Shown piece by piece: positions 1-28,903 of a stretch of 64,000 nt of DNA. The position numbers and the translations under genes are program-made. Numbering within the stretch: the stretch's first letter is position 1; the number at the start of each line of letters is the position of its first letter. This stretch comes from Candidatus Omnitrophota bacterium (GTDB lineage Bacteria > Omnitrophota > Omnitrophia > Omnitrophales > Aquincolibacteriaceae), in the NCBI GenBank assembly GCA_903856085.1, contig CAIOAT010000016.1, forward strand, positions 8,581-72,580, given 5' to 3'. The notes below the pieces were generated by a model that worked only from the letters and a program-made list of their open reading frames with translations, was not told the DNA's origin and searched no databases.

Positions 1-23
1 TCAGCAAGAGAGCTTCGGACATA

Positions 24-5398: not shown

Positions 5399-5901
5399 TT
5401 TAAATCTCCGGATTCCTGAAACTATTTCTCTCCTTAAGACGCAGGATTGTAGTCCTTTGGAAAGCGGAAATCAAATCTTCCGAAGCTTTCTGATAGTTTT
5501 TACACATATTTATCATCACCGTCATGGGGTATTTACATAGAAATGCGAGACTTGGGTCAGAATAAAGAATAAAACAAGCTTGCGAAAGGGGATCAACCAT
5601 GATCAGCCAATTAGACTGCCTCGAAGACTTGATGGATTGGAATTCTTGCACCGAAATCAAATCGGCGCCTACCGCACGCGTGGGAAAGAGTTTTTTCCCT
5701 GTTTTTATGATCGAGTCCGCAACGACATCACCGGCCGGCAAAGAAATGGACTCGTGGCTTATCCGGTCCGGGCTTTCTCCCCAAGCAAGCCTTGCCTTCA
5801 GCCGGATCGGGATCTACACGGATTTTTCTTAGCCCTAATCCAAAAAGATCGCGAATCTTGCCTCTTATTTTGAACTTCACGGAACGTTCGGGGATCTGTG
5901 A

Positions 5902-9231: not shown

Positions 9232-9385
9232 AAATGATTCCTTTCCTGGACTCAAGATCTACCCAGAATCATTATCGACGATCAACATGATGGGAGTGTT
9301 TGGCGGAGGAAAATTCCGTGTAAAATCATTTTGAAACGACGTAATCAGCTCTGGGGAAACAGGTTAAAGAAACCCTGCCGAACGC

Positions 9386-11455: not shown

Positions 11456-11467
11456 AGTTTTGAAACT

Positions 11468-13030
11468 CTAAAGCGACGGGCCCGCGCCTTGCTTCAGATC
11501 GAGGGGTGCTCCAAAAACATCGGCGAACATGTCCCCTTTCCGTCGCAGGCTTTCCCGTTCAAGCGAAATATCCCCGATCTCTTTCGGCACCCAGATCGCA
11601 TAAGTGTCTTCCGAACGTTCCAGAGTAAACGACCGGATCTTCTGCTGGTGGCCGGTGTCCAAAGCGTCTGCAATGCGCAGGATGGAAGCAAGTTTTGAGA
11701 CGATTGCCCGGTCCGATTTCGCAAGAGACATGTAAGGTACGTGCGTTTCGCGCGGCGGCACACGGCGATGATACCGGACAACATTAGCGACAATATTCTT
11801 GTCGGTCCTCCTCAGCCCGAAGATCTCGGCGGCATCCACTAAATAATACGAATGCTTGTGGTGTCCCGAAGGAGAAACGTAGGTTCCAATATCATGTAAG
11901 ATACCGGAAACCTCGAGCAAAAGACGCTCGCGGGACCCCATGCCATGATCTCCCGCAAGCAGGTCATAAAGTTTCAATGAGAGTGAGGCCACGCAAACCG
12001 CATGCCCCTTGTCGTACATATATTTTGCCCCAAGGTGGTGGGCGGAATTAAGGACCTGCTTCGAGACGTCCGTTCTTCGGTAACCCGAAAAAAGCTGGGC
12101 CATTTCGAGCAAAAGACCGTCCCGAATACTTAATTTTGGGATAATGACCTCCTCCGCCTTGGTTTCATTTAAAAAATTCAAATAAAAAAGAAGCGCGGGG
12201 TAAAGGGACTCCGCATGCCCATAATCGAGAGAGTATTGCGCGGCAATCTCTTCGGGCGTCATTTTCCCCACCCGCCCCATAAAACTCACAAATTCTTTCT
12301 TTTCAAGAATGGTGAAACGGTCGAGAGTCTCCGGAAGAAGCTGCTGCGATACGAATCGCATATCTCCACCCAGAGCAACGAACGTATCGATCTGCTCCAT
12401 ACGAACTTCACGCGCCACGTTCTGTGCGATATCCCGGATACTCTTCTTCAGAACACGCTGTATGAGTCCCGCATCTTCTTTCCCGGCTACGGCCTGCTCG
12501 GGAAGCCTTACTGATCCTATCGGCAGGGTCCGCGTAACGCTCACCCGACCTTGATCCATGATGATCATTTCCGTACTGCCAGAGCCTACTTCGACGATCA
12601 GGCAATTCTTTTTTTCGAGATCGATCCTCCCCTCCAGCGCATGCTCGACCGCGATCAATTCGAGACGGTTTTCTTCCGGGCCCTCCAAGATCTCCACTTC
12701 GATGCCAGCGCGCACATAGATTTGATCGATGAAATTATCCCGATTCTGGGCCTCCCGGACAGCGCTCGTGGCGATCGCTTGGACTTTTTTGATTCCATAC
12801 GTATCGATCACAGACTTGAAGTCTCGGAGAATGTTCACACCCTGGCGCATGGAAGCACTGCTCAACCTGCCCGTTTTAAAAACATCTTTGCCGAAACGAA
12901 CCGGCTTTTGAAGCTGCTCCAAATAACGAATCTCGTTTTTGGCTCCAACCTCCGCAATCACCATGCGGATTGCAATGGTTCCGATGTCAATAACGGCGGC
13001 GATATGTTTTTGAATTTCTTGTTCAGGCAT
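11468..13030 (-). CDS. ppx: Exopolyphosphatase/guanosine pentaphosphate phosphohydrolase (Ppx/GppA) with C-terminal HD domain
   Basis: ASKHA-fold N-terminus 'AAVIDIGTIAIRMVIAEV', C-terminal HD motif 'ILHDIG'; immediately downstream of ppk1 as in canonical ppk-ppx operons. Confidence 0.85.
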   Translation of the reverse strand: MPEQEIQKHIAAVIDIGTIAIRMVIAEVGAKNEIRYLEQLQKPVRFGKDVFKTGRLSSASMRQGVNILRDFKSVIDTYGIKKVQAIATSAVREAQNRDNFIDQIYVRAGIEVEILEGPEENRLELIAVEHALEGRIDLEKKNCLIVEVGSGSTEMIIMDQGRVSVTRTLPIGSVRLPEQAVAGKEDAGLIQRVLKKSIRDIAQNVAREVRMEQIDTFVALGGDMRFVSQQLLPETLDRFTILEKKEFVSFMGRVGKMTPEEIAAQYSLDYGHAESLYPALLFYLNFLNETKAEEVIIPKLSIRDGLLLEMAQLFSGYRRTDVSKQVLNSAHHLGAKYMYDKGHAVCVASLSLKLYDLLAGDHGMGSRERLLLEVSGILHDIGTYVSPSGHHKHSYYLVDAAEIFGLRRTDKNIVANVVRYHRRVPPRETHVPYMSLAKSDRAIVSKLASILRIADALDTGHQQKIRSFTLERSEDTYAIWVPKEIGDISLERESLRRKGDMFADVFGAPLDLKQGAGPSL

Positions 13031-13038
13031 GCTGTTCC

Positions 13039-14031
13039 CTACTTTTTGGCCGCTTTAAAAACTTCATGGGCCATTTTGGCGGCTCCTAAAATAACCGCAT
13101 TATCCTTCAGTTTGGACGGGACGATTTTCACCACTTTGGCGAGGGGCTTAAGCGCGTAAGCTTCCATCTCACGTCTGACCTCAGGAAGAATGATCTTTCC
13201 CATCGCCTCCATCATTCCTCCTCCCAAGAGGATCAATTCCGGATTCAAAATGTTCACCACATTCGCTAGCGCAACCCCGAGCCACCGGGAACGGCTCCGG
13301 ATCAGCTCCTCTAACGCGATATCCCCCGCTTTGATAGCGCGGGACAAAGCACCGCTGCGGATTTTTTTTACGTTATAACCGATCTCTTCGAGAAGATGCG
13401 GGCACTTCTGCCGCAGCAAGAGGAACCCCGCCTCCGATGCAATAGCATTCCTGCCGACCAAAGCTCCGACTTTTTGGCGCGACGTTTCAAAATCAGAAAA
13501 AGAAGGAAGTGACAGAAATGTCTGGCCGATCTCACCAGCTCCTCCAGAAGCGCCACGGTAAAGATGTCCGTTGATGATGAGCGCCCCGCCGATACCCGTT
13601 CCTAGGAAAACCCCCACGACTTCCCGATAACCCCGCGCTGCGCCGAATTGCTGTTCTCCGAAAAGCCCCGCATTGGCATCGTTTTCAATAAAGACCGGTG
13701 TTTTCAGCTTCGCTTTCAGTTTTTCAGCAAGTGAATAATTCTTAAAAAAAGATACGTTGGAGGAGACTTTGACGATCCCTTTATAGATATCAATGATTCC
13801 AGGACAACCCACACCGATGGTTACAAGATCACTCAGGTCCGACCCGGTTTCTTCCAGAACTTCCTCGATCCCGTCAATGAGCTTGTTGAAAAAGAACCTC
13901 TCGCCGCGATTACCGTCCATCTCAAGTTTGACGGTCTTTTTTAAACTAAATTTCCTGTCAAAAAGACCTATCAGAATCTTGGTCCCGCCCAGATCGATGC
14001 CAAGGATGAACTTCTTTTTCTTGCCCGCCAT
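13039..14031 (-). CDS. ROK-family sugar kinase (glucokinase; possible polyphosphate-glucokinase)
   Basis: 'ILGIDLGGTKI' ASKHA phosphate-1 motif, ROK family Cys/His-containing middle region; start re-set to MAGKKKK (ATG ~14031, GGAGAG SD). PolyP specificity only inferred from ppk/ppx neighbourhood. Confidence 0.7.
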   Translation of the reverse strand: MAGKKKKFILGIDLGGTKILIGLFDRKFSLKKTVKLEMDGNRGERFFFNKLIDGIEEVLEETGSDLSDLVTIGVGCPGIIDIYKGIVKVSSNVSFFKNYSLAEKLKAKLKTPVFIENDANAGLFGEQQFGAARGYREVVGVFLGTGIGGALIINGHLYRGASGGAGEIGQTFLSLPSFSDFETSRQKVGALVGRNAIASEAGFLLLRQKCPHLLEEIGYNVKKIRSGALSRAIKAGDIALEELIRSRSRWLGVALANVVNILNPELILLGGGMMEAMGKIILPEVRREMEAYALKPLAKVVKIVPSKLKDNAVILGAAKMAHEVFKAAKK

Positions 14032-14279
14032 AGACTCTCCCCTTTCAAAATTGATTTCCATTATAATGGCTCAGGGAAGTTTTTATGTAAAGCATTTGTA
14101 AAGTCTTGGTGGCTCTATCCATTCAGACCACCTAAAAAGCCCTTCCAGAAATTCCGTAGAGAAATCCACAGGCCCCTATCTTCACACAAAACACAGGGTA
14201 TTCCTCGCGATCTTTTAACGCAAACAAGCCATCACATAAACCTCTGTGCGAATGAACACGTTTTTCACAGGAACTGTTT

Positions 14280-17200
14280 TTATGCCGCTACTTTAACAGC
14301 CTTTGCATTTCTCCAGGAAGCAGCAAGGAACTCTGTGACAAGCATCAAGGCATCTTTCATGCCCCAAAGATCCCGTTTTCTTCCTAGCTCAAAAAGTTGC
14401 CGACTTGTGACAAGATACCAGAGAAGAGAAAAAAGAACCTCCGGGTCAGAGCTCTTCAACTCCTTATCGTAATAAACAAGATTCCCAACGCAACTCTTCA
14501 CCTTTTGGACTTCGCGGCGATCGATTCCGACATAAGCATAATCCAAGCGTTGATATTGAGGTCCGGTGACTAAGGGACGCAGGAATTTCAAAATGGAAGC
14601 ACTAATGCTATCAGATATCTCTACTAGCTGAAAATGTCCGGTAGGAAGCTCCATTTTCTTTATCTTTTGTTCGATTGCCTCTTTCCCGGGAAATCGACTC
14701 CTCTCGAACAGGATAATGACACGGAACGGCAGCCGCGAAAGCAGCAAAAGATGCTCATCGCGAATTCCGATCCTCGCGTCCAGGAAAAGGGTGTTCAAGG
14801 CATTGGCCCGCTGCGGAAGAGCGCGGAACATTCCCATTCCTTTTTGGAAGGCTAAAAAATCGTCCCCTGATAGCGCTAAAAGCTCCTTCAGATCCGGTCC
14901 TGTGCTTTCTGAAAGAAAACTCGCGTCACCCAAAAGAGATTTTAAGCGCGGTAAAAGTTTTACATCCTCCGGTCCTAGGATCCATTCCGTGATCTTGATG
15001 GCAACCAGAAGACGGACTTTCTCCGAAACAACCGGCGTCACGTCTTCTTGCAAGGAAATCTCACGCGTAACCTCTTTGGGATTGAGTTCTAACGCTGGGG
15101 GTTTTTCGGAAGTTCTGTCTTCTCTCAATTCGGAACGCAGCACCCCACCAGGGCCCACAGCAGCCAACGCGGTTGCAATCGCCGAAAAGTGCGTCGTTAG
15201 AATCTTGTAAGTACGCGGCGTAAAGACACCTCGTTTTTCACGCAACATCGTAGAAACATCCTCGGGGGAGAGGGCCACGATCTCAACGGCATCATCTCCC
15301 GGTCTAAATTCTTTCCAATTGAACTCTCCATTGAGCGAAAAATGAAACAACTTTACATCCTCTTTTCTTGTGGTGGGAACTTGCCTTCGCCCCTCATGAT
15401 GAACTTCATAGGAAAGAGGAGGGAGCTCCCGAACTGGTAATGAGGTTAAGGCCGCGGGAAGAGGGCGGCCATCACGGAGTTCTTCAAGGAACCCCCTCTG
15501 GATTGCGGCTTCCGGACTTTCTCCGGGCTCCAGATGCTCAAAAACGGGAAGATCCAATAGACCCGGATTACTGGAAGTTAAATTACTGCGCCGCTGAAAA
15601 ACAACTTTTCCATCCTTGGTCACAAATGCGGCAACCTTTAAGGCCGCCAGACCTCTTGCATGCCCCTGTTTTCTTGGCAAGTGTACGATTTGATCGCCTC
15701 GCGTATCACGAAACATAAAAATCTGCCGATCCGCGAGCAATGAACCTTCCCCCTCCAATCGCTCGACGGCTGTACGGTTCGCCAGCTCCGGAAAAGATAC
15801 CTCGAGGCGCTTCATCCGCTCCAAAATCCCAGCCCGATTGCTCCCAGATATAAAAAAATGATCGGAAGGCGCCGGAACAAAAGCCTCCACTTCAGGAGGC
15901 TTCTGCGCAGTCGCACGAAAGGTCTCCCACAGTTTTTTCCCCATCGTGCTATAAATCTTCGCATATGGATTGGCGGCATCTTGTCCATCCGAAAACGTTT
16001 TTTGATTATGAGCGAGCCTCTGAAGATTAGGCGACACCGAAGTATTCCCTCGAAGCTGAAGATCGAACTCAGCAACCACTCTCGCAAAATCCTCTACGAG
16101 ATCCACCACAAAAGCTCCATATTTTGAGATCAAGCTTTCTGTTTTTTTACGAAATACGTCTATCAATCCTTCCATCTGTTGACGTTCCTCCTCCGTCCTT
16201 GAAACAAGAGCCATGGGCCCTTTGGGAACTGCAAATTGAGGCGTGATCGCATTATCCAATGTCAGACCGGTCCCGAACAAATGCCCATACTGACCTAAGG
16301 CACCTTTCAATTCTTCTGGGCGACGAACCACATGCTCCACATCATGCCTCGGAGAACCGTTACGCCCCAACAACACGGGATGCCGATCTGTTTCAACTTC
16401 TTCCAGAGAAGCAAGCCGTGCGTCAATAACGATCTGACTTCCCTGGTTGTTATAGCTGATCACATTCGAGCTCAGGTCGCCTCCAGGGAAAATGATCTCT
16501 CCATGCTTCACGCCTTGCTCCCTGAAGTCGCCTGCCATCCGCAAAGCTTCGGCAAGATTCATCTTAAAGACCGCCATAGCAACCGCCAAAGGAATACCTG
16601 GCTGCGGGAACCAATAGATCTGTAATTTTTTACCCAACGACTCCGCCAGATCGCGAGCGGCAAAAAATTGTCCGGCATTCCCCGGGAAAAGGCCGTCGGA
16701 TTCCGCTACTTTGAAACGGAAATGTTTCAGAACATGATCCTGCGCTACCATTGTTTCAAAAAAATTCCGATTCTCTCCGTTTTTAGGCGGGAGCAAAATG
16801 ATCACCTCGACGTCCTCCCTCAAATTTTCATCCAAAAGCGCCCGGCTCATCTTTGCCATCATAAGATTTTCTCCGGCGACATCGTCCATCTGGGAAAGGG
16901 CAACTTCCCTCCTGGGTTCTGAGGCCGGTCGTGACATTTCATATTGTTTGTTTCTCATACGTTTCGCGGACGCCCGTAAGGATTGGATCTCACGTTTGAA
17001 AGTCCCGTAACCATTTCCACTAAGATTCCTCAACATCGGCCCCACATGCCTCCAAACTGAGAAAAGGGTCCACAAAACACCAAAGATTGTCGGAACTGTA
17101 ATCAACAACTGGTGCAAACCAAATATAAGGTTCAGGATGGGTACAATAAAAAGAATCGCCACTCCGGCCACCGCCAATGCCCGGCCAAGCCATCGTCCAT

Positions 17201-20200
17201 AAAAATGGTCTAGCTTGTTTCCTTCCAGCTCATCAAGTTCGGCTGTGGGATGGAACGCTTTATGGAGTCCTGCTTTTGCCACGCGCATGGCCTCACGTTC
17301 ATTTTCAAATCCGGATATTCCCAGTTTTTGCATATTGGCCGTCACGCGTCTAAAGCTGTTCAGCGTCACCCACCGATTGATCGCCACCATCAGCGTCACC
17401 CCGAGGCAAAGACGCCATATGGAAAAGGTCCAGAGAACCTTCCGATTGTGCAGGATCTTCTGCCAATCCGAGAACTTCATTCCGTCTTGAAGCAATAACT
17501 TGGGAGGATAAAGATCGATTACCTGGGAAAGGGCAATGAGCCGATTCGACAGATTGAATCCTTCATTAAAATTCTCTGCAAAATCGGCTGATTTTTCAAG
17601 AAACCTCAAAACCTCCTGCTCTTCGATATCATTCCCAGTCCCCCGAGTCGCCTGAAATTGACGGGAAGCCGTCTGAGCGGTCAGGATCGATAAGCGGGCC
17701 AAAATCCCACGGATCTTGACCAGAGAATGCGTGTCGGGTTTCCACATTTCAGAAAGGTCCTCAAAATGTTCCCGGGAAAATCTAAGCAGCGGATGCTGCG
17801 CCAACTCGCTGGCCTTTGTGGTGATCATATCCCTTTCGCCCGAACCCAAGTGCTCATTTTCTAAAAGAAGTCGAGTCCAAGCCTGAAGCGGCTCAACGAT
17901 TTCCTGGAACACCCGCATATCCACGTCATCACCGCGGACCGCTCTTTGTTTATTAGCGTTTCTTTTTAAACGCATCCCGATTTTTCCCGCCTCGTCAAAG
18001 AGAATCTCTAGAGATTCCACGGAATCTCTCCGGAAAAACTTCTCATGCCCTCTTTTTTTCATCAATGCGAAAAAAAGTTTTGGAAGATTCCAGACAAGTA
18101 GAACCAAAGCAAGAACCGGGAAAAAACGCCAACTGATGTAACGAGCCCCAAAAGGGTTCATGAAATACCTCAAGAGAGCCGCTCGCTGCGTGGGATTTTG
18201 TTCTTCCCTTACTAGCTCCAAAAGTCCCAGAACCCCGATCTTTTGTCCGGGATGCATTTGAAATTGTTCCTGAACGGATGCGGGAATCGAATCTATTAAG
18301 CGAAGAGGTGGCGACTTTCTTTCGACAAGATCGCCTTTCTTCTTCGCCCAGGCTGAGGCTTTGGCGGACCCATCGAAAGCAATATCCGCAACACTACCCT
18401 CGCCAAGAATTCCCTCCGTATCGTCGCTGCGGATCACAACTCCCTCCCGTTCACCCAAAAGCCATTGGCTGCTGTTCGCGAGAGGGATCACTGCATACAC
18501 TGTCCCCATCAAAACGCCGCGGGATGTCACGACAGAGACTTTATCTCCTGTTTTAACGCTTCCCGTTTCGACAGGGAGCAGAAAAGGATCCTCATTGGAA
18601 AGACGGCCTGTCCATTCTGCAGAACGGGGGTCAACGCTCGTTCCCAAAAAAACCTCTTTGTTTACAATGCCGGCTTTCGTCACCTGCCCCGCCGCCAACG
18701 TTTGTCCATCTAAAGCAGTAACGCCCAGAACACGACCCCCCACGGGAGCTTTGAGCAGGATGGGCAATCCGCTCCGCTGGATCCCTGCAACGGCCCGCTG
18801 AGCTCTTTTTTCATAGTCCTGGAGAGAGCTTTCGGGAAGAGTCCTAAAGTCCTGGTTCGCCTTACGCATTGTCCGTGCAAGAGTCTCAAGCTGTCTGGCA
18901 ATCTTGAGCTGCCCACCTTGCCCCACAGGGATCCATTCCCCCAAGGAGTCCCCGGCCTTAACCGTTTGTCCATCCCGAACTGTAGCTCGAAAAATTCCGG
19001 CGTCGATCCCGGGAACGGGAGGAACACCGACCGGGATGAACTGTGAAGATGGAATAGTGGTGTGAAATCCGGCATTGTGATGCAATCCTAACGATTCGAC
19101 GCTCGGAGTATTATCTTTTATCAGCTTAATATCATATGCACAACTCGCCCCATGGGCCGGAAGAGATGTGGAAGATGGGAAGCTGAAATGAACTGTTAAA
19201 ATAAATTCGCCGTCCACTCCTTTCGCAAGGTCAAAATGACTTGCTTCCCAATCCAACACATTCACGGAATGCCCATTGACGGAAAGTTCGATATCATCGG
19301 CTCCGGAATATCCCGGAGGAAGAGCAATCTTTATGACCCCCTCATCCAGAGGAACGATCCCCACGGCATAACTACCAGCCGTTGCCGGCCCCTGATCCAG
19401 TGTTTGAACGATTGCCGGGCGGGGCGAAACCAGGATGTCGGCTTCTGCTTCCGCCTTCAGTTGAGCGAGCTCCAGTTGATGTTCGATCCTCTCAAATTGA
19501 TATTGAAATATTGTGTCCCGGTCGAGAGTCCCCGCATCTTTTTCTCCTCTGGCCACCAACCCGCCAAGTTCTCGGATCCTATCTTCCAGAAATTGAGTCC
19601 TGTTATCGCGTTCTGTATCCTCTCCTCTCGCAAGCAGGTCGCCTTTTTTGACAACATCTCCAGGTTTAACGGCATAAGTCATCTTATCTGCCGTCAATGG
19701 GGCTTTGAGCATGACCGCACCGGGAGGATTCACGATTGCTTGTCCTTTGCCTGTATACAAGACAGTTGCTGTGTTTGCGACAGAGTGTTGCTCTTCAAAC
19801 ACTGGTTTGACCTCTGTCCTATCAGAAACAAGGGAGGCTGATGCGACGGAAGACGGCTCTTTCACGGAAGCCTCCTCGTTCGTGACATTCAAAGCATTGG
19901 CAGTCCCGGCTGGGCTTTGAAATGGTATCCCGGAAAAATCTTTCTTCGTGAGTTTCTCCTTTGCGCCTGACGAAGTCATTACCTGTTCTCCTTGAGAAAC
20001 CGCATCGGCCAAGGTTTCGCGCCCATCCACGTTGCCTACACCAAGAATTTCGATGACGGAACTATCCGGAGAGACCGATTGGGGGTTGGATGTCGCATGA
20101 TCGGCTTCAGAAATTTTTGGGCTCTCCGCGGTGGTTGGAAGTGCGGAAGATGGCCCATCCGCAGAAACCCTGTCGGAGAGGACCGATGATGCCGCTGCAA

Positions 20201-23200
20201 CCGGAGAAATATACGCTCTCGATACTTTTGAAGAATGCCCGTTCTCTGGAACGGAAGACGCTCCCTCCAAAGAAACAATTCGGAAATAGCCTTGGTGTTG
20301 GGGCACCACCACGAATGTTGCTTCATAAGGATTCTTGGTTTCCTTGCGTAATGTCCAGATCCCCTTTCTTTCCGTTTTAAGAAATTTCGCACCCTGCAGG
20401 TCTTTTCCTAAAAAAGTCACTGTAGAGGAGGGAACGCCCCGCTGCATTAAAAGCTGCGCTCCTTTCATGTTTTCGGTGATCATTTGTTTGCCCACCAATT
20501 TCTGAATCGCCAATTCATTGGTTTGAGCCAAGGCTGACGAAGCCATGAGAAAAGCCCCCAGCAAAAATCCTCCCATTATTTTTAACAAGAAATGGATTCC
20601 CAGCTTTCGGCGAACTTCTGAACGCTGTGGTGCAATTCCTAGCCCGAAGAAATTTGCCCCGGTGATAACATTCAAAGGTTCTACCCACGTTTCGGATGCG
20701 CGCAGATCTGTAAAACCCTTCGTAGTCCATACTTTTTCGGATACAACTTGAGCATTCAACCAATCTCTTAGTTCGTCCGGGATAGTTTTTGATCCCACCA
20801 GTCTCCACGAGAAAACCTTCCGGGAAAAACCTAAGACGATTTGGATATCAGCAATGGGTGGGGCGTTTTGATTCGTCTTCACGTGAAATAGGGTGCCATT
20901 TATGCCAAGCTTGTGCCCTCGTCTTAAAAATCCCTGCAATTCTGGAGACATCTCCAAAACAATTTTGCCAAGATCAACCCTGTAAACCAACCCCGCAACC
21001 TTTGTCTCTGGCCCAAAAGCTTCAATGTGCTTCGCCGAAAGAGAGGCTGCGCTCCGCATTTCGAATCTTGTCACACCCTTCTTGAAAGACCGATAAGCCT
21101 GCATCAAAAGGCCTGCGGCGATTGCTGACGCTTCCTCTTTTTCTTCAGCCCTTAGCTTTGATTCCCGCGTGTTCAATTCGATATATTCACGAATTCGAAC
21201 GTTAAGTCCAGATAGCGCAGAGGAGGTAAAATTCATCTCGAAAGATTCGATCGCTTTAGCGGCTAGCGCGTAAGGAACCAAGGTATCCGGCAGATCCTTG
21301 GCCTGTCCAAGATCGTTTCTAACCGATTCCAAATCGGCAAAAGTAACCCCGCCATTCCGTTCTTTTCCATAAATGAGTCCCCACGCAAGCGCCCAAGCCG
21401 CCATCGCCTGCTCAGCAGGGATTCGAATGGCCCCCTTAGCCGACGTCATAAGCTCGAGTGACACGGCGAGCATAGACGTCGGGATCATTGCATCCGCATC
21501 ATCCAACAACCCGCCATCGATCAAGCTCACGATCGCATGATGGGCAAGAGCACGCACGGTTCCGCAATCACTGAGATTAAGTTGCAAAAGCACTTCTGCA
21601 CGCTTCAAAGCTTCCCCAAGGATTTCCTTATTCATAACGGGATCAAGATAATTTGAACGCGCCTCCGAACGAACGACGATTTGCGCTTTCACCGATCCCG
21701 GTTCAGAACGGCCAGACGCTGCCTTTTCGCGAGAAAACCGATGGCGAGAGAGTTTCGAATCAACATTGGAACGCCGAAAGGCCTCTGAAATCAAAACACC
21801 CAGATGAATTTTTTTAATCATTTTCAAAGCCACCCAGGAAAAGGCAATATCCCCCGTAAGGATGACGAGCTCTGAAAGGTAGGGGCTTACAAGCTTGTTG
21901 ATAATCATCGCCATCCCCTCAACAGGAAGGAACCATAACAACAATTGACGGCGACTCTCCTTAAAAGATCCGTGGCTTTTGAAGAGTCGTAGAGATTCGA
22001 AGTTATTTTCAGGATAGATGTTTGTATAATATTTCCAGAGCATAAGTGGATAAAAAATATAAAAATTGATCAAAGCATCCCCCATGGTTTTAAGGACGAT
22101 CTCAGACCACACATCAAGCCATGGGGAAAGATTTAATTTCCCGATTAAGGCATAATAAACGGTAAAAAATAAAGCGAACAAGCTAGCTGGAGCTGCGGCT
22201 TTCCTGGAGTCTTTCCAGAATGTTTTCATGAACACTCCTCGAAAGCCATGGCGAAGATAATCCTGCATCCAGACACAATATGCCGCAATCATGCCAGCCC
22301 AGGCGATACTCACGCCAAGTGAAAGAACTAAAGAATGCCATGACGCGTTCTGAAGATGCGGTTTAAGGATAAACGCCAGCCCCAGAGTGGCGGCTGAAAA
22401 TCCAGCTGTCCCCATCGCGGCAGGTGTGATTTGTTTGAGATGAGCGAGTTTGGATCTCTGGTTCCTTATTTCGGACCGGCCGAGCAAGACTTGGGGCAAT
22501 CCCTTTACGTCCCGAGTAAGCACTTGCAGCTCTTTGGCTGCCAATGTGGCCGCCTTGCGAGAGAATAGGATTTGGATCTGATTACTGGGGATCTTTAAAG
22601 CGTCCACAATAAGCCGGTCCTCGGTAACGCCAGCCCCACGAGCCTTTTTCAGATAGCCATCAATCCTTGCATTCTCGGCCTCCGCAATCCGTATCGTCTC
22701 ATTTTCAGCCACAATCGTTTGAAGAAGACCTGCAATCTTCTCTTCGATTTTGTCATGAACTGTCAAGAGCTCGGCTTCCGCTACACGAGTCTCCAGAAGA
22801 GCTATTTCCCGATTGGCTCGCTCAGCGCCCCCGAAAGTCACCTTCCCGCCGAGACCTACGGCCTGCTGATCCTCCGTGCGTTGTTTTGCCTCCGGAACAA
22901 CTCTTGTATTGAACACATCCGGAACTTTTGTCCCATAGGAATCGAAATAGTTGAATCCCTTAAGACCGATCGAGTAACCGTTCTCTCTTGCAGCCAATCT
23001 CGCGGCCGTTGCGGCAGTCAAACGGGCCTCATAAGCCAACGCAAGTTCACGGTTTGCCGGAAGTTTGACGCCTTCTTTGGAGGTTGCTTTAAGACCAAGC
23101 GCTATTCGTTGATCGGTTGTGATCGTCCACCCTTCCGGAAATCGCACATAATTCAAGGCATTGGAAAAAGTCGCACATCCTAAGATGTTTTGGCCATAGA

Positions 23201-25985
23201 GTGTCCTCAAAGGCAATGCCGCCTTCTCCAACTTGGAACGATGCTCATTAAGACGTAAAAGCCACTCCGCCTTAAGATCTCCGATCGCCTGGCGTTTTGC
23301 GGCTGTTGACTGCGAGTTCTTGCCGGCGACTTCGCTAGCATGATCGATCGCCTCAAGGGCTGCTTCAATAATTGGGCCTTGTGATTCAAGCGTTTTCATT
23401 TCGTAGGCGGCCCCCAAGAAATCGAGGTATCGTTCACCCGCCACCTGCTGAAGTTCCAGTCCGGCTGTTTCAACCATCTGCTGCGCCAGTTCTCGCGCCA
23501 GGATATCCTGACCTTTCCAGTATTTGCTAATCTCCGCTGCAAGGGATAACACCGCACTGGCCGCCGAATCCAAACCGATCCCCGTTAATTGTATCTGCCC
23601 AAGATTCGGCAAAGTTCCTTCGACGCCAAGCCCAAGCACCGGTTTCCCATCTGCGAGACCTAGGGTAGGCATGAGAGAAATGCTCCCGGACAAACTTCTT
23701 TTTTTGGATTCCCGGATACTCACCTCAAAACGGTGTCTCAGAATGACCGGATCGCGAGTAACCAATGCTTCAGCCAGGGAGCTTTCATTCACCAGAATCG
23801 GACCGGACAGAGAAATTTCTTTTTGCGGCAAAATGTACTGACGATCCGATTCGATCTGTTGTCTCGCATGGTCACGGCCCAAATTCGCACAACCGCTGAG
23901 AATGCCTGCCATTACAACCCAAAGAACCGCCTTCATGAACGAGGAGGGCTTCCATCGGATCTCGGCGCGCGAGAACAAATTGTTTTTTCCCTGGATCGCG
24001 TCGGGGAGCAATGCCAAAAGTCCCTTCTCCGCCCCGGGAGATAGCAAGGGAGTCGGATCTAAAATGAATCCGACATGGGTATTCATTCTCTGAAATAAGA
24101 AGCTCAAAACGTGTTGCTCTAATGCTTGACGAACTTCATGCATCCCTTTGTAAAATTTCTCCGGAATGGCTGCGAATATCCGTTGTCCCTCCCCATCCAT
24201 GAATGCCGACTTTCCCGTCTGGGATCTTTGGGCCAACACGCTGTGTTCTCCCTCGGAAACATCGACCACCGCCACTTGATGTTTTTTAAGTGATCTTTCG
24301 ATCTGTCCCATAGCCGCTTCAAAATGGTCAAATGCTGGCTCTCCGACCATCTGCCTCGCCTCGGAGTGTTCCATCACGGGGAGCTGCGCGGGAGCGATCG
24401 TAGACGTCCCGGGATACCGCCCCATCAAGAGATCACTATAGGGAAGCATCTTTTCTTCCGGGTTGAAATACGGCGTCACAAGATTGAACGGTATCCCAAG
24501 CGCTTCTGTTCGCCTGAGTAGTCCTTCCTTATGGTAGCCTCCGGCAACAATCACAATGTTTCTGGTTTTATTCCCCTGTCCATTCAAAAAAAGAGGATCT
24601 TGAATCCTTTTTTTGATGATATCAAAAAAAACATCTTCGCGAGCTTCTGCCTGAGCATAAAAATCCAAAACAAGGTCGACAAGGGGCGCTATCGTCTCTT
24701 CGTGAGGGAGTGATGGCTCCCGGAGAAAGCGCTTGTAAGCCTGCACCCAGTTCTTGCGAAAATGGTCGCGAAACCGGGCCACGCACTCCCTTTTAAGTTC
24801 AAGGGAAAGCGCCTGTTTCAGGAGGAAAAAATCCTGGTAAAAGGCAAGCCATCGTCCAGCTACCGGATCACTGCGACGGAGGGTCTCATACAACCTGTTC
24901 TCGAGCGTCTGGATTTCGTCAAAAAGTCTTTCGGCTATAAGTTCGCTTTCAAATACCTGCAAAGCAAGAAACTTCCGAATCATCGGATAACGTCCCCAAG
25001 AAAGCTCCCGTGCCAAAAATTTCTCCATGATGCGTTCCGCCATAACGCGAGAAGTCACGCTTCCAGTCTGAAGTGCGCGTGACCGGAAAGTTGCATTCGA
25101 AGCGGCGCTCTCGAGCCATTCGATTTCCGATCGAGAATCCGGACCAAGCACCCGTTTAAGCTGTCCGATTTCTTTCGTGACTGCGCTACAATCCGGTGCT
25201 GTTTCCGTATTCAAAACACGGAAAAACCGAACTAGCTGAGGCCAATCTTTTTGCGTCGAAAGATCCCGCCAATCGATTCCCAAATGCTTCGAAGAGCAAT
25301 CAAAAAGAAACTTCATGTACTCGCTTAAATCATTTTGGCTTTCCTGATGAGATCTCCACATTTTCAAGAAATGGAATACCTGCGGATCAATAACTTTTTT
25401 GATATCTTGAATTAATGATGCCTCCACCTGATCAAGAAACTCTCGAATCTCACCATGGTTGCGCATAACGGCCCGGTAAGTTTCGAGGTTCTTTCGGTAA
25501 AGCCCTGCCTCCTCAATCCCGTACACGCGTATGCCGGAGTGATTTGCAAAGAATTGAGTGGCGCCATTAACGAATCCCGCTTGGAAAAGGCTTCCCAAAA
25601 AGATCCTGTTCTTTTCATCATCCTGGAAAGGCTTCAGAGCCTCGGGAGACAGAGGGCCTGATGCACCTTCAATAAAAAGCATATCGAGTTTCTTTTGCTC
25701 TAGAAGGGACTCTAGTATCTTCGTAATATTCTTTTGAGCCTCTTCCGAAGCATGCGCATCTTGGATATGGTAGAAACTGAAAGGCACGGACCTTTCCGGG
25801 GGCGGGGACTTTTCAAGGCTTCCTACTTTGGGGGATAAAAAAACGGGGGCTTCGGCAACAGCGCCGGTATAAAAATATGCCGTCACAGCACGCACTTCTT
25901 GGGAAGGAAAAATGGTTTCAAAAACAAAAATGGCCACAACAGCAAATGCTACGATCCGGATCAATTTGCTTTTCTTGGCTTTCAT
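14280..25985 (-). CDS. Giant (~3,900 aa) multidomain envelope protein: N-terminal module of unknown function, lipobox + TolC-like OMF repeats, polytopic TM block, internal signal-peptide-like segment, S/P/A-rich linker, two HlyD-like membrane-fusion modules, further TM blocks, C-terminal cytoplasmic region with Nudix-like domain
   Basis: Single ORF with no in-frame stop over 11.7 kb (impossible by chance at ~50% GC). TolC-like coiled-coil/beta repeats (aa ~720-1230), MFP lipoyl/beta-barrel motifs ('AVKPGDVVKKGDLL…', '…TVKAGDSLGEW…LKAPVGGRVLGV'), hydrophobic helix clusters, Nudix-box-like 'GESPEAAIQRGFLEELRDG'. ATG at 25985 (GGAAAAGGG SD) or TTG at 26015. Confidence 0.8.
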   Translation of the reverse strand: MKAKKSKLIRIVAFAVVAIFVFETIFPSQEVRAVTAYFYTGAVAEAPVFLSPKVGSLEKSPPPERSVPFSFYHIQDAHASEEAQKNITKILESLLEQKKLDMLFIEGASGPLSPEALKPFQDDEKNRIFLGSLFQAGFVNGATQFFANHSGIRVYGIEEAGLYRKNLETYRAVMRNHGEIREFLDQVEASLIQDIKKVIDPQVFHFLKMWRSHQESQNDLSEYMKFLFDCSSKHLGIDWRDLSTQKDWPQLVRFFRVLNTETAPDCSAVTKEIGQLKRVLGPDSRSEIEWLESAASNATFRSRALQTGSVTSRVMAERIMEKFLARELSWGRYPMIRKFLALQVFESELIAERLFDEIQTLENRLYETLRRSDPVAGRWLAFYQDFFLLKQALSLELKRECVARFRDHFRKNWVQAYKRFLREPSLPHEETIAPLVDLVLDFYAQAEAREDVFFDIIKKRIQDPLFLNGQGNKTRNIVIVAGGYHKEGLLRRTEALGIPFNLVTPYFNPEEKMLPYSDLLMGRYPGTSTIAPAQLPVMEHSEARQMVGEPAFDHFEAAMGQIERSLKKHQVAVVDVSEGEHSVLAQRSQTGKSAFMDGEGQRIFAAIPEKFYKGMHEVRQALEQHVLSFLFQRMNTHVGFILDPTPLLSPGAEKGLLALLPDAIQGKNNLFSRAEIRWKPSSFMKAVLWVVMAGILSGCANLGRDHARQQIESDRQYILPQKEISLSGPILVNESSLAEALVTRDPVILRHRFEVSIRESKKRSLSGSISLMPTLGLADGKPVLGLGVEGTLPNLGQIQLTGIGLDSAASAVLSLAAEISKYWKGQDILARELAQQMVETAGLELQQVAGERYLDFLGAAYEMKTLESQGPIIEAALEAIDHASEVAGKNSQSTAAKRQAIGDLKAEWLLRLNEHRSKLEKAALPLRTLYGQNILGCATFSNALNYVRFPEGWTITTDQRIALGLKATSKEGVKLPANRELALAYEARLTAATAARLAARENGYSIGLKGFNYFDSYGTKVPDVFNTRVVPEAKQRTEDQQAVGLGGKVTFGGAERANREIALLETRVAEAELLTVHDKIEEKIAGLLQTIVAENETIRIAEAENARIDGYLKKARGAGVTEDRLIVDALKIPSNQIQILFSRKAATLAAKELQVLTRDVKGLPQVLLGRSEIRNQRSKLAHLKQITPAAMGTAGFSAATLGLAFILKPHLQNASWHSLVLSLGVSIAWAGMIAAYCVWMQDYLRHGFRGVFMKTFWKDSRKAAAPASLFALFFTVYYALIGKLNLSPWLDVWSEIVLKTMGDALINFYIFYPLMLWKYYTNIYPENNFESLRLFKSHGSFKESRRQLLLWFLPVEGMAMIINKLVSPYLSELVILTGDIAFSWVALKMIKKIHLGVLISEAFRRSNVDSKLSRHRFSREKAASGRSEPGSVKAQIVVRSEARSNYLDPVMNKEILGEALKRAEVLLQLNLSDCGTVRALAHHAIVSLIDGGLLDDADAMIPTSMLAVSLELMTSAKGAIRIPAEQAMAAWALAWGLIYGKERNGGVTFADLESVRNDLGQAKDLPDTLVPYALAAKAIESFEMNFTSSALSGLNVRIREYIELNTRESKLRAEEKEEASAIAAGLLMQAYRSFKKGVTRFEMRSAASLSAKHIEAFGPETKVAGLVYRVDLGKIVLEMSPELQGFLRRGHKLGINGTLFHVKTNQNAPPIADIQIVLGFSRKVFSWRLVGSKTIPDELRDWLNAQVVSEKVWTTKGFTDLRASETWVEPLNVITGANFFGLGIAPQRSEVRRKLGIHFLLKIMGGFLLGAFLMASSALAQTNELAIQKLVGKQMITENMKGAQLLMQRGVPSSTVTFLGKDLQGAKFLKTERKGIWTLRKETKNPYEATFVVVPQHQGYFRIVSLEGASSVPENGHSSKVSRAYISPVAAASSVLSDRVSADGPSSALPTTAESPKISEADHATSNPQSVSPDSSVIEILGVGNVDGRETLADAVSQGEQVMTSSGAKEKLTKKDFSGIPFQSPAGTANALNVTNEEASVKEPSSVASASLVSDRTEVKPVFEEQHSVANTATVLYTGKGQAIVNPPGAVMLKAPLTADKMTYAVKPGDVVKKGDLLARGEDTERDNRTQFLEDRIRELGGLVARGEKDAGTLDRDTIFQYQFERIEHQLELAQLKAEAEADILVSPRPAIVQTLDQGPATAGSYAVGIVPLDEGVIKIALPPGYSGADDIELSVNGHSVNVLDWEASHFDLAKGVDGEFILTVHFSFPSSTSLPAHGASCAYDIKLIKDNTPSVESLGLHHNAGFHTTIPSSQFIPVGVPPVPGIDAGIFRATVRDGQTVKAGDSLGEWIPVGQGGQLKIARQLETLARTMRKANQDFRTLPESSLQDYEKRAQRAVAGIQRSGLPILLKAPVGGRVLGVTALDGQTLAAGQVTKAGIVNKEVFLGTSVDPRSAEWTGRLSNEDPFLLPVETGSVKTGDKVSVVTSRGVLMGTVYAVIPLANSSQWLLGEREGVVIRSDDTEGILGEGSVADIAFDGSAKASAWAKKKGDLVERKSPPLRLIDSIPASVQEQFQMHPGQKIGVLGLLELVREEQNPTQRAALLRYFMNPFGARYISWRFFPVLALVLLVWNLPKLFFALMKKRGHEKFFRRDSVESLEILFDEAGKIGMRLKRNANKQRAVRGDDVDMRVFQEIVEPLQAWTRLLLENEHLGSGERDMITTKASELAQHPLLRFSREHFEDLSEMWKPDTHSLVKIRGILARLSILTAQTASRQFQATRGTGNDIEEQEVLRFLEKSADFAENFNEGFNLSNRLIALSQVIDLYPPKLLLQDGMKFSDWQKILHNRKVLWTFSIWRLCLGVTLMVAINRWVTLNSFRRVTANMQKLGISGFENEREAMRVAKAGLHKAFHPTAELDELEGNKLDHFYGRWLGRALAVAGVAILFIVPILNLIFGLHQLLITVPTIFGVLWTLFSVWRHVGPMLRNLSGNGYGTFKREIQSLRASAKRMRNKQYEMSRPASEPRREVALSQMDDVAGENLMMAKMSRALLDENLREDVEVIILLPPKNGENRNFFETMVAQDHVLKHFRFKVAESDGLFPGNAGQFFAARDLAESLGKKLQIYWFPQPGIPLAVAMAVFKMNLAEALRMAGDFREQGVKHGEIIFPGGDLSSNVISYNNQGSQIVIDARLASLEEVETDRHPVLLGRNGSPRHDVEHVVRRPEELKGALGQYGHLFGTGLTLDNAITPQFAVPKGPMALVSRTEEERQQMEGLIDVFRKKTESLISKYGAFVVDLVEDFARVVAEFDLQLRGNTSVSPNLQRLAHNQKTFSDGQDAANPYAKIYSTMGKKLWETFRATAQKPPEVEAFVPAPSDHFFISGSNRAGILERMKRLEVSFPELANRTAVERLEGEGSLLADRQIFMFRDTRGDQIVHLPRKQGHARGLAALKVAAFVTKDGKVVFQRRSNLTSSNPGLLDLPVFEHLEPGESPEAAIQRGFLEELRDGRPLPAALTSLPVRELPPLSYEVHHEGRRQVPTTRKEDVKLFHFSLNGEFNWKEFRPGDDAVEIVALSPEDVSTMLREKRGVFTPRTYKILTTHFSAIATALAAVGPGGVLRSELREDRTSEKPPALELNPKEVTREISLQEDVTPVVSEKVRLLVAIKITEWILGPEDVKLLPRLKSLLGDASFLSESTGPDLKELLALSGDDFLAFQKGMGMFRALPQRANALNTLFLDARIGIRDEHLLLLSRLPFRVIILFERSRFPGKEAIEQKIKKMELPTGHFQLVEISDSISASILKFLRPLVTGPQYQRLDYAYVGIDRREVQKVKSCVGNLVYYDKELKSSDPEVLFSLLWYLVTSRQLFELGRKRDLWGMKDALMLVTEFLAASWRNAKAVKVAA

Positions 25986-26119
25986 TTTTTGCCCTTTTCC
26001 AATGGTGGAAGACAACTCTTTAAGGTTTTATAAAAGTTTTTCCTTCTGATCTCACGGAAAGCTTAACTTCGTTGTGAAAACTCTGCATCACATCCCGGTA
26101 AAGATAATGTAAAAACAAT

Positions 26120-26439: not shown

Positions 26440-27129
26440 ATGGCAAGCGAAACGATTCTCCTCATTGAAGACGAAAAGAACATCCTTGAGCTTGTGAAAT
26501 ACAACCTCGAGCAGGAGGGTTTTCGCGTCCTCACCGCGACCAAAGGCAACGCAGGTCTTGAGACAGCGCTTAAAGAAAAACCAGCCCTTGTGCTCCTCGA
26601 CCTCATGCTCCCGGAAATCAATGGCCTCGAGATTTGCAAAACCCTAAAACAGACCGAAAAAACACGCAGGATCCCTATCATCATGCTTACGGCCAAAGGC
26701 ACCGAGTCCGATAAAGTCGTCGGCCTCGAACTCGGCGCCGATGATTACATCACCAAACCTTTCAGCCCCCGGGAACTCGTAGCTCGCATCAAAGCCGTCC
26801 TTAGACGCTCTCAGGAAAAAGCCCCGGAAGAGATCTTGAGATCCGGAACGATCGAGCTTGACGTGACAAAGCATGAGCTGCGATTAAAAGGAAAGCCCGC
26901 CGAAATTACCGCCAAAGAATTCGAACTCTTGCGCGTACTCATGAGTTCCAAGGAACGGGTCCTGACGCGCGAGGTTCTCTTATCAAAAGTTTGGGGTTAT
27001 GAGAATTCTGTGAATATCGAAACGCGGACTGTCGACATGCACGTCGGACAGCTACGAAAAAAACTTGGCAAAGAAGCGGATCGGATCGTCACGGTTAAAA
27101 GCGTCGGCTACCGTTTCGACGGAGAATAA
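26440..27129 (+). CDS. phoB: OmpR/PhoB-family response regulator
   Basis: REC domain with D at 'LLDLMLP', winged-helix output '…VWGYENSVNIETRTVDMHVGQLRKKL…TVKSVGYRF'; adjacent to PhoR-like kinase and in a Pho-gene neighbourhood (symbol is inferred). Confidence 0.85.
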   Translation: MASETILLIEDEKNILELVKYNLEQEGFRVLTATKGNAGLETALKEKPALVLLDLMLPEINGLEICKTLKQTEKTRRIPIIMLTAKGTESDKVVGLELGADDYITKPFSPRELVARIKAVLRRSQEKAPEEILRSGTIELDVTKHELRLKGKPAEITAKEFELLRVLMSSKERVLTREVLLSKVWGYENSVNIETRTVDMHVGQLRKKLGKEADRIVTVKSVGYRFDGE

Positions 27130-27130
27130 G

Positions 27131-28903
27131 ATGGGCTTTCCAAAGATCGGTTTCGCCAAACGTCTCCTCGTGCTGTATGGCATTATTTTCATCCTCGTCC
27201 TGCTCGTAACCGATTGGACGCTTTCTCATTTCCTCCAAAAGCGTGACCTCCAACAGCTTCAGAGCTCTCTTTCGCGTCAGTCGACCCTGATCCGCGAGAT
27301 TGCGACTCCTCTATTAAAGGAGGCTCCCAAGCTCCAATCCAAAGTCAAAAAGCTAGCCGAGGGGACCGATCTTCGCATCACGATCATCGATCCCGAAGGC
27401 GCGATCCTTGCCGATTCCAGTGAAACCAGCGAGGCTCTCGCGAAAATGGACAATCACGCGACCCGGCCCGAGGTTGCGTCCGCACTGAGAAAAGAAACGG
27501 GCATGAGCATCCGTTACAGCATGACTGTTCAGACCAAAATGCTTTATATCGCTATCCCCATCCTGGAACACTCCCAGATCCTAGGGGTCGTTCGCACCGC
27601 GATGCCGATCACACGCGTCGATGAGATCCTGGCCTCGGTCCGCCGACCCGTGATGCTCGCAGCGGTCCTCGGCATTTTGATCGTCCTCGTTGCCGGCATT
27701 CTCTTCGGCGGTCGCCTCACCCAACGCATAGGACGCATCACCTCCGTAGCCGAACGTTATGCCCGCGAGGACTGGTCTGAAAAAATCCTGATGGACGGCC
27801 GCGACGAGCTCAAAATGCTCGCAGATACCATGAATCAAATGGCCACATCCCTGCGCTCAAGGATCGAAGACCTGGAAAGTGAGAAAGGTAAGATTTCCGT
27901 CATTTTGAGCAATATGAACGAAGGGGTGATCGCGATTAGCCGGCGCAAACAGTTTGTTATGGCAAATCCCGCAGCGGAAAAAATCTTTGGATTCACTGCC
28001 GCCCATACGCAGGAGAAAAGTCTGATCGAAATCACACGCCACCCTCAACTCGAAAGGATCGTGGACCACGCCTTCCAGGAGCAAAAAAACGCCTCCTCCG
28101 AAATCCAGATCTCCGGCAAGATAAAAAAGACACTTCTTGCAAATGTGATCGTTCTCGATGCCCACGCCCGCGATATCGGCGGCATCCTTGTTTTTCATGA
28201 CATGACGGAGCTCCGTCGACTCGAGAATATCCGGAAGGAATTCGTAGCCAATGTTTCCCACGAACTCCGCACGCCCCTCACCTCGATTAAGGGATTCATT
28301 GAAACGTTGCTGGGCGGCGCCTTAAAAGATCCCCCGACCAGCGAACGGTTCCTGAAAATTGTTTCGGAGGAGACGGATCGACTCGGAAGGCTGGTGGAAG
28401 ATATTCTGACGCTTGGCGAGATCGAACAGGGCGCGGCTCTGGTCAGGAAAGAAAAGATCGATCTTGCCTCTGAACTCCCGGCCATCCTGGAACGATTTAA
28501 GACCCAGCTCCAAGAAAAAAAGATCGCGGTCGAAAACCGCATCTCCGGGAAACCTCTCCCGCTATCTGGAGACAGGGACAAAGTCCATCAGGTCTTCGTC
28601 AATCTCATCGACAATGCGATCAAATTCAATAAGCCTGAAGGGATGATCGTCCTGTCTGCCGATCAAAGTCCGAAAGGCGTGGTGATTACCATCGAGGATA
28701 CGGGGATCGGTATTCCTGAAGAGTCCCTAGGACGGATTTTTGAGCGGTTCTTTCGTGTGGATAAAGCACGTTCAAAGGAGCTTGGAGGAACCGGATTGGG
28801 CCTAGCCATCGTTAAACACATCATGGAAGCGCATGGCGGCCACGCCACATGCCAAAGCACCCCCGGCCAGGGTTCCCGCTTTTCGGTTTTTTTTCCCGCC
28901 TGA
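27131..28903 (+). CDS. phoR: Sensor histidine kinase (PhoR-like; two TM helices flanking ~150-aa periplasmic domain, HAMP, PAS, HisKA, HATPase_c)
   Basis: H-box 'VSHELRTPLTSIKGF', N/G1/G2 boxes 'LIDNAIKFN…DTGIGIP…GGTGLGLAIVK'; start set to ATG 27131 (GGAGAA SD, 1 nt after RR stop). Confidence 0.85.
   Translation: MGFPKIGFAKRLLVLYGIIFILVLLVTDWTLSHFLQKRDLQQLQSSLSRQSTLIREIATPLLKEAPKLQSKVKKLAEGTDLRITIIDPEGAILADSSETSEALAKMDNHATRPEVASALRKETGMSIRYSMTVQTKMLYIAIPILEHSQILGVVRTAMPITRVDEILASVRRPVMLAAVLGILIVLVAGILFGGRLTQRIGRITSVAERYAREDWSEKILMDGRDELKMLADTMNQMATSLRSRIEDLESEKGKISVILSNMNEGVIAISRRKQFVMANPAAEKIFGFTAAHTQEKSLIEITRHPQLERIVDHAFQEQKNASSEIQISGKIKKTLLANVIVLDAHARDIGGILVFHDMTELRRLENIRKEFVANVSHELRTPLTSIKGFIETLLGGALKDPPTSERFLKIVSEETDRLGRLVEDILTLGEIEQGAALVRKEKIDLASELPAILERFKTQLQEKKIAVENRISGKPLPLSGDRDKVHQVFVNLIDNAIKFNKPEGMIVLSADQSPKGVVITIEDTGIGIPEESLGRIFERFFRVDKARSKELGGTGLGLAIVKHIMEAHGGHATCQSTPGQGSRFSVFFPA

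Follow-up and report, generated by a model that had tools for sequence, protein, structure and literature searches.

An internal export signal behind a recurrent pentapeptide suggests polyprotein-like processing of a giant open reading frame in Omnitrophota

What purpose does an export signal of N-terminal type serve in the interior of a very long protein? The question is raised by a stretch of 64,000 nucleotides (nt) from a Candidatus Omnitrophota bacterium (GenBank assembly GCA_903856085.1, contig CAIOAT010000016.1, positions 8,581 to 72,580; this whole stretch is hereafter 'the window'), whose minus strand carries a giant open reading frame (ORF; its amino-acid (aa) numbers count from the TTG) with a Sec-type, signal-like segment at aa 1803-1830. 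The segment lies 1,802 residues into the ORF and hence is not N-terminal on the translated chain; it would become N-terminal only after a proposed cut at the pentapeptide RSEVR that precedes it. A first-pass annotation had described here a hydrophobic, Met-containing stretch ending in A-x-A (at aa ~1814), had likened it to the export signal of an independent protein and had offered gene fusion, re-initiation or processing as its explanation. We argue that the segment is very probably a conserved export signal at the N-terminus of a module, and we favour, with moderate confidence, the reading that it is the N-terminal-type Sec signal or anchor of an adaptor module (MexA/MacA/HlyD-like) within an operon-scale polyprotein cut at its junctions. 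So understood, the segment is the visible tip of an apparently undescribed, family-wide junction code in giant ORFs.

The segment reads RKLGIHFLLKIMGGFLLGAFLMASSALA followed by QT, and comprises an n-region (RKLGIHFLLK, net charge +3), an h-region (IMGGFLLGAFLMASS, with a Kyte-Doolittle peak of 1.87 in a 19-residue window at aa 1807-1825) and a c-region (ALA/QT) with small residues at -3 and -1 (A-L-A/Q at aa 1828-1831). The reverse complement of window positions 20510-20576 encodes M1814-GGFLLGAFLMASSALAQT... (codons 1814-1832: MGGFLLGAFLMASSALAQT), so that the stretch is present as first described, as are the lack of a Shine-Dalgarno (SD) sequence before ATG 20576 (CATTTCTTGTTAAAAATA) and the GGAGGA right after it. 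Being one of ~12 Kyte-Doolittle hydrophobic peaks in the ORF, the segment alone is not beyond chance; it exceeds chance because of its context, namely the adjoining RSEVR and an order that is kept in the orthologues. At all 13 orthologous junctions before the adaptor module, the motif is followed by a basic region (10-30 aa, net charge +2 to +5) and then by a hydrophobic one (14-28 uncharged residues), which ends mostly in small residues (AFA, VFA, ALA, AQA or FAG).

The module behind the segment consists of a low-complexity linker (aa 1831 to ~2040) and two lipoyl-like/alpha-hairpin units (aa ~2080-2560). Its AlphaFold model (aa 2040-2625, 8 sequences) is of low confidence (predicted local distance difference test, pLDDT, 61.5) and shows two beta/alpha-hairpin/beta units (hairpins H95-120 with H127-153, and H327-351 with H356-376), for which the top 50 Foldseek matches in the PDB are all adaptors (MexA, MacA, AcrA, ZneB, CusB, Spr0693; E 3e-7 to 2e-5, probability 1.00). 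By Pfam, Biotin_lipoyl_2 reaches 21-22 bits (under its gathering cut-off of 29.8) and HlyD_3 matches the module in two of eight orthologues (up to E 1.4e-3, below the gathering threshold). Since the fold behind the segment is adaptor-like, the segment occupies the position in which an adaptor protein requires a signal or anchor at its N-terminus, which bears out the likeness to the export signal of an independent protein. The module has the fold and the need for a signal in common with the known periplasmic adaptors (MexA, AcrA, MacA, HlyD), and has a TolC-like partner in the same ORF, but differs from them in having two tandem lipoyl/hairpin units, a signal internal to a 3,911-codon ORF and sub-threshold Pfam scores; no RND, ABC or MFS pump domain was recognised in the window ORF.

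The RSEVR before the segment is one of five copies of R-[SA]-E-x-R in the giant ORF, against 0.20 expected (5,000 shuffles, maximum 3; Poisson P~2.4e-6), while 16,002 residues in the window's other ORFs of at least 250 codons contain none. The arginine codons of the motif are mixed (CGC, CGG, CGT, CGA, AGG, AGA), and the constraint therefore acts at the level of the peptide, not of the nucleic acid. RAEIR stands directly before a lipobox segment and RSEIR before the first helix of a multi-pass membrane module, as RSEVR does before the segment at aa 1803-1830. Where three independently exported units had been counted initially, the ORF joins, via short linkers bearing the five strict motifs, no fewer than six modules of protein size: a secreted TIKI-like domain (U1), a TolC-like lipoprotein (U2), a membrane protein (U3), an orphan (U4), the adaptor with a membrane/NUDIX region, and a C-terminal module (U7). 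Looser copies occur at aa 550 (HSEAR) and aa 3031 (ASEPR). The former (window 24351-24365, minus strand, aa 550-554) falls where the TIKI-like domain ends, within a helix predicted with moderate confidence, and is followed by a conserved x-M-x-G (relatives have RPEARAMIGG or RSEARDMVGS at this site) and by a piece of ~130 aa that extends to RAEIR; it may be either a junction or a part of the TIKI-like domain.

The same motif recurs throughout the family. A whole-protein search returned 77 homologues, every one 2,170-6,482 aa long (named sources: Omnitrophota, Auribacterota and Elusimicrobia/Endomicrobiaceae), in which R-[SAP]-E-x-R occurs 282 times (up to 19 per protein) against 20.4 expected; an unbiased search for over-represented pentamers recovered R-S-E-x-R as the top word in ~22 proteins. 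The motif is a compact 5-mer (x being L, V, A or M), with small residues (S, A, G) and P enriched upstream, E enriched downstream and flanks otherwise not conserved, and consecutive motifs enclose stretches the size of a protein (about 100-700 aa). No motif interrupts any of the five enzyme domains found in two of the homologues (P0012 and P0020): four occupy an inter-motif piece by themselves (DUF218, Methyltransf_4, PNP_UDP_1 and Maf, the last with profile positions 1-185 of 187), and the fifth, Pyr_redox, is in one piece with CTP_transf_like. Junctions are exactly where modules have been gained or lost (U3 occurs in four of nine clade members, U4 was found in the window protein alone), and in homologue P0003 the TolC-like module leads through RSELR into the adaptor signal with nothing between. 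Across the fetched loci and the window, the motif reaches a density of 0.88 per 1,000 aa in giant ORFs and of 0.13 in flanking ORFs, with one clear exception among the latter (a second giant ORF upstream in locus L002). Furthermore, a hydrophobic segment follows the motif in 17% of cases (5% background), and these segments include conserved lipoboxes and twin-arginine (Tat-like) signals (RSESR-FLKRRDFISLTALAG / RSESRFLKRRDFISL... in P0026; MNRRRFLALAGMALAGLVSGC in P0007 and several loci). In P0007, L001, L005, L006 and L008 it is the lipobox signal that also has the twin-arginine motif.

Other recurrent pentamers appear in proteins with few or no copies of RSExR (A-[AS]-S-L-G in P0023, P0027, P0031 and P0034; G-A-R-L-A, eleven times, in P0059; A-A-R-L-S in P0038), which suggests lineage-specific junction codes. 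All of these alternative pentapeptides have a Leu followed by a small residue. Motif type fits the U1 clusters loosely, with switches inside one cluster.

As the segment contains a Met, internal initiation or re-initiation at Met1814 might be thought to produce the downstream part as a separate protein from the same mRNA. An in-frame ATG does stand at the start of the hydrophobic core, and a Met is found 7-17 residues after four of the five junctions in the window. Across the family, though, a Met within 20 residues follows 31.7% of the 281 motif copies that have a Met downstream (31.8% at random positions), the position of the Met is not conserved (four of the 13 orthologous segments have no Met at all), the ATG has no SD, and a start at M1814 would strip the entire basic n-region. 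Moreover, neither promoter-like nor terminator-like sites were found at the RSEVR junction (nor is either class enriched in the ORF), and the junction has no Rfam match and no unusual RNA structure (z = +0.5). We consider re-initiation extremely improbable, and the 'Met-initiated' aspect of the segment is incidental.

How, then, would a signal so placed come to work? We propose that the chain is cut on the cytoplasmic side of the membrane, during translation or soon afterwards, by an endopeptidase that acts at each pentapeptide or right beside it. A cut after RSEVR1802 would leave RKLGIHFLLK-IMGGFLLGAFLMASS-ALA at a free N-terminus, and this sequence, continued by QT, would then be a textbook signal peptide; the adaptor module would be exported by SecYEG, and signal peptidase I may cut after A1830. 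We hold it probable that cutting at the motif does take place. Among the explanations, processing has the best indirect support: a motif marks the junctions, lipoboxes and Tat-like signals are conserved, and signals that follow one another with the same N-in orientation conflict in topology. No hydrophobic segment separates the ORF's own signal (N-flank +4) from the lipobox signal (N-flank +3), and the two therefore cannot both be N-in/C-out in one uncut chain. A lipobox needs that orientation. The same conflict holds between the TolC-like module and the first helix of U3, and a TolC-like protein must leave the inner membrane.

The principal alternative is a single, uncut, giant multi-pass membrane protein, in which the segment would be an internal start-transfer helix and the pentapeptide a linker or interaction motif. 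The ~12 hydrophobic segments of the ORF are compatible with such a protein, and if the helices of U3 are even in number, U4 would be in the cytoplasm and the segment could insert N-in/C-out without a cut. An uncut chain is at odds, apart from the two N-in signals without a helix between them, with the lipobox (LSGC) and Tat-like RR signals, which are features of N-terminal signals, with a c-region (A-x-A or similar) that most of the 13 orthologues retain although a plain transmembrane helix has no need of one, and with the TolC-like module, which when tethered cannot reach the outer membrane. Processing is further favoured because an uncut chain would tie the cytoplasmic housekeeping proteins of the homologues (enzymes, sigma factors, HPr) to the membrane. 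On this evidence we judge the uncut chain unlikely, if still a serious contender. Of the explanations initially offered for the segment, then, the concatenation of formerly or functionally separate proteins is upheld, processing gains the indirect support of motif, signals and topology, and re-initiation is lost.

Several points weigh against the processing reading. We infer cleavage itself, the position of the scissile bond and the identity of the protease alike, and published surveys take the giant proteins of Omnitrophota as single chains anchored in the inner membrane and rich in transmembrane helices; both points speak for the uncut chain. About half of the homologues are without any recognised recurrent junction motif, and the adaptor assignment depends on a model of low confidence. 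The remaining points concern the protease. U1 is the sole module common to all 28 motif-rich polyproteins and is therefore the natural candidate for a protease acting in cis; its universality is partly an effect of ascertainment, as the family was found via homology to U1. The statement that U1 never stands alone rests on 77 proteins and 22 loci, and a search with a distant U1 as query gave one partial match. The AlphaFold (AF2) model of U1 (pLDDT 84.6, predicted template modelling score 0.80) has its highest Foldseek probabilities (0.5-0.6) with EreC (6xcs/6xcq), BcR135 (3b55) and HopBA1 (5t09), none of them significant: the matches have E values of 0.14-1.1, the best of which (0.14) makes for a weak TIKI assignment, and TM scores below 0.3, the latter because of a helical insertion of ~300 aa. 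Two of these structures, 3B55 (BcR135) and 5T09 (HopBA1), are members of the TIKI superfamily, a family that includes the sequence-specific endopeptidases Tiki and RRSP, with a His/Glu mechanism (PMC6254334). The profile PF04187 ('Tiki superfamily, ChaN') matches six of 22 U1 members (best E 3e-4) and does not match the window copy. Among the 22 U1 sequences, H88, E116, H495, R459, Y173, Y453 and Y526 are invariant, and the second invariant Glu of a 2His/2Glu set was not identified. At most complete N-termini of the family a basic N-flank precedes a hydrophobic stretch (53 of 77 pass a strict hydrophobicity cut-off), often followed by A-x-A; with a Sec-type signal before it, U1 should act in the periplasm, while the topology argument needs a cytoplasmic cut. 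That U1 is the junction protease is accordingly doubtful in our estimation, and a cytoplasmic protease other than U1 is at least as likely a candidate. Apart from the TIKI-like U1, no peptidase family was detected in the window ORF.

Might the segment instead be a decaying relic of a recent fusion, or the ORF an artefact of assembly or annotation, with no present function in either case? U4, just upstream of the segment, is unique to the window protein, and the local arrangement is therefore evolutionarily young. Nevertheless, the ATG at 25985 (behind a purine-rich GGAAAAGGG) is the likely true start and gives a protein of 3,901 aa that is identical to a database protein (P0001) found unchanged on 18 independent public contigs from several sources. 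The orthologues keep a single continuous ORF together with the signal features at ~30-64% identity in the modules held in common, and at this divergence a signal without function would retain neither its charge nor its hydrophobicity nor A-x-A. We regard a relic or artefact as highly improbable. The synteny comparison proposed earlier, which asked for separate genes in relatives, found none, and the motifs are nonetheless conserved in the continuous orthologous ORFs. An exhaustive HMMER search with aa 1803-2625 against 1.84 billion representatives returned four proteins (each 1,780-2,663 aa) and no stand-alone homologue of the adaptor module. In 22 loci from GTDB genomes (retrieved with a 5-sequence alignment as query), a homologue of the N-terminal domain again heads a long ORF (complete ORFs 1,353-3,609 aa). 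One ORF of 1,951 aa (L005) was considered as a case of gene fission and dismissed, as a scaffold gap (N-run) makes it look short.

Only the first ~550 residues are common to all 77 homologues, the remainder being common to eight or nine close relatives, and no second universal module, C-terminal or other, was found across the family. The precomputed Pfam domains of the homologues are very diverse (glycolytic and sugar enzymes, EI/HPr of the phosphotransferase system (PTS), sigma-70, kinases, Maf, TrmB, radical SAM). The cargo of the proposed polyproteins would include PTS components and sigma factors as well as housekeeping enzymes and envelope machines.

The giant multi-enzyme ORFs of Omnitrophota are a recognised puzzle. 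In the published cases, one ORF tiles many unrelated enzyme domains (among them NUDIX, HATPase_c, LOG, radical SAM and sugar metabolism) along with transmembrane helices and signal peptides (West-Roberts et al. 2023, bioRxiv 10.1101/2023.11.21.568195; Nielsen & Lui 2026, bioRxiv 10.64898/2026.06.07.730766). West-Roberts et al. speculate on post-translational cleavage by C39 or S8 peptidases and state that the cleavage points are unknown (10.1101/2023.11.21.568195), while Nielsen & Lui describe class 1 'multi-enzyme metabolic clusters' with many transmembrane helices, in a text from which the words cleavage, polyprotein and lipobox are absent (10.64898/2026.06.07.730766). The family described here belongs to the same phyla but differs from these proteins, which have at least 10,000 aa and N-terminal C39/S8 peptidases, in its length (1.4-6.5 thousand aa), its TIKI-like start, its explicit junction pentapeptide and its internal Sec, lipoprotein and Tat-type signals; neither C39, S8 nor dockerin domains were found by Pfam in the window ORF. 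Our literature search found no account of the pentapeptide, of the TIKI-like leader module or of internal export signals in these giants (the motif strings returned noise), nor any description of bacterial polyproteins in Omnitrophota, Elusimicrobiota or Auribacterota.

Functionally, the closest analogues of the proposed system would be MARTX toxins and viral polyproteins, as likenesses rather than established relatives, given that protease and products are here putative. MARTX toxins are likewise single bacterial ORFs of several thousand residues whose modules are released by cuts in the linkers by a protease of the same chain. They are secreted and are processed in the host cytosol by a cysteine protease, activated by inositol hexakisphosphate (InsP6), that cuts after Leu. 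The modules of the window family are, by contrast, envelope components and housekeeping-type enzymes, with export signals of N-terminal type inside the chain, and Pfam found no CPD domain in the window ORF; the MARTX effector RRSP is itself a TIKI-family endopeptidase (PMC6254334). Viral polyproteins (picorna-, flavi- and nidovirus) also bring many proteins into one ORF, with short junction motifs for a cognate protease, and those of flaviviruses have internal signal sequences that direct downstream parts across the membrane. Unlike them, the window ORF stands on a cellular chromosome among ordinary neighbours and its cleavage is conjectural; no 3C-like or NS3-like protease was detected. The mitochondrial tandem precursor Arg5,6 is described (PMC8734313) as a single chain comprising two enzymes, which the processing peptidase that also removes N-terminal presequences splits apart at an internal site; it differs in belonging to a eukaryotic organelle and in having two modules only, another peptidase and another motif.

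Extending the reading to the whole family, we tentatively put forward, as a possibility that falls short of being probable, that Omnitrophota, Elusimicrobiota and Auribacterota express the equivalents of operons as polyproteins, which would be cut at lineage-specific pentapeptides (R-S-E-x-R, A-A-S-L-G, G-A-R-L-A), the TIKI-family domain at their head being a possible protease, and whose pieces would be routed by their own Sec, lipoprotein or Tat signals. If true, cells would have their own equivalent of the way in which viruses express polyproteins, and the giant genes of these phyla would gain the cleavage code they have lacked. Together with internal signals of N-terminal type, the statistically very strong motif makes a concrete, testable cleavage code, which points to an uncharacterised sequence-specific protease and suggests that in some bacteria polyprotein processing takes the place of operon-style translation. 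The junction motif also provides a way to split giant ORFs into real proteins for annotation and structure prediction, and thousands of 'hypothetical giant proteins' could be re-annotated cheaply by this rule.

The features of the giant ORF are collected in Table 1.

Table 1. Features of the giant ORF in window coordinates; functional labels are predictions from sequence and modelled structure.
Feature	Position	Strand	Residues	Remarks
Giant ORF	14280..26015	-		3,911 codons counted from TTG
Putative N-terminal Sec-type signal peptide, MKAKKSKLIRIVAFAVVAIFVFETIFPSQEVRA then V	25887..25985	-	11-43	
U1, TIKI/ChaN/erythromycin-esterase-like domain	24336..25886	-	44-560	
Candidate junction motif RAEIR	23955..23969	-	683-687	
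Putative lipoprotein-type signal, WKPSSFMKAVLWVVMAGILSG-C709 (lipobox)	23889..23954	-		lipobox conserved in orthologues
U2, TolC/OEP-like outer-membrane-factor module	22479..23888	-	710-1179	
Candidate junction motif RSEIR	22464..22478	-	1180-1184	
U3, multi-pass membrane module	21672..22463	-	1185-1448	only some orthologues
Candidate junction motif RSEAR	21657..21671	-	1449-1453	
U4, no recognisable family	20625..21656	-	1454-1797	344 aa, motif on either side
Candidate junction motif RSEVR	20610..20624	-	1798-1802	directly upstream of the segment at aa 1803-1830
Probable Sec-type signal peptide or signal anchor	20526..20609	-	1803-1830	
Periplasmic adaptor (membrane-fusion-protein)-like module	18141..20525	-		downstream of the segment at aa 1803-1830
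Membrane region (3-4 hydrophobic segments) and cytoplasmic-type region with NUDIX	15138..18140	-	2626-3626	
Candidate junction motif RSELR	15123..15137	-	3627-3631	
U7, C-terminal 'bookend' module	14283..15122	-	3632-3911	

Regarding the individual modules, Pfam OEP (PF02321) matches the window copy of U2 with an E of 5.4e-4 (aa 688-1184 searched) and four of eight orthologous modules, of which that of P0003 lies above the gathering score (28.1 bits), and the lipobox ahead of it is conserved in the orthologues as L/V/I-S/T-G-C. U4 has no homologues in other family members, Pfam, NCBIfam or PDB sequences and is confined to the window protein and its near-identical copies; it is apparently an orphan cassette inserted at a junction. 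Pfam identifies the NUDIX domain (aa 3036-3631 searched, E 1.2e-6), and no conserved junction motif was found inside aa 2626-3626. The clade-specific U7 stands at the very C-terminus of all seven full-length close homologues (most of which end in ...AA or ...AV) and has no relatives in PDB or Pfam. No match came from searching PDB sequences with U4, U7 or the U1 profile, and NCBIfam yielded nothing useful for the seven modules.

Some of the related loci show other arrangements of giant ORFs. One Omnitrophota contig (L002) holds two in tandem (nt 3-6863 and 9740-15472), and the upstream one (at least 2,287 aa, its N-terminus being removed by the contig end) has two RSEVR, one of them followed by a Tat-like RRGFLK, and a C-terminal module of the same type as the window ORF. 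In one Elusimicrobia metagenome-assembled genome at least three ORFs are headed by a TIKI-like domain (L012 and L014 on contig JADKCG010000013.1; L018); these are shorter (1,353-1,930 aa), have no R-S-E-x-R and are followed by ordinary separate ORFs, and may represent an intermediate or differently organised form.

The genes around the giant ORF (window 24-14061 and 26440-28903) are of ordinary size. On the downstream side are a ROK-family sugar kinase and genes whose translations, inspected by eye, resemble exopolyphosphatase, polyphosphate kinases 1 and 2 and a phosphate transporter; this polyphosphate/phosphate theme may or may not be linked to the giant ORF. Upstream and divergent are an OmpR-type response regulator and a HAMP/PAS histidine kinase.

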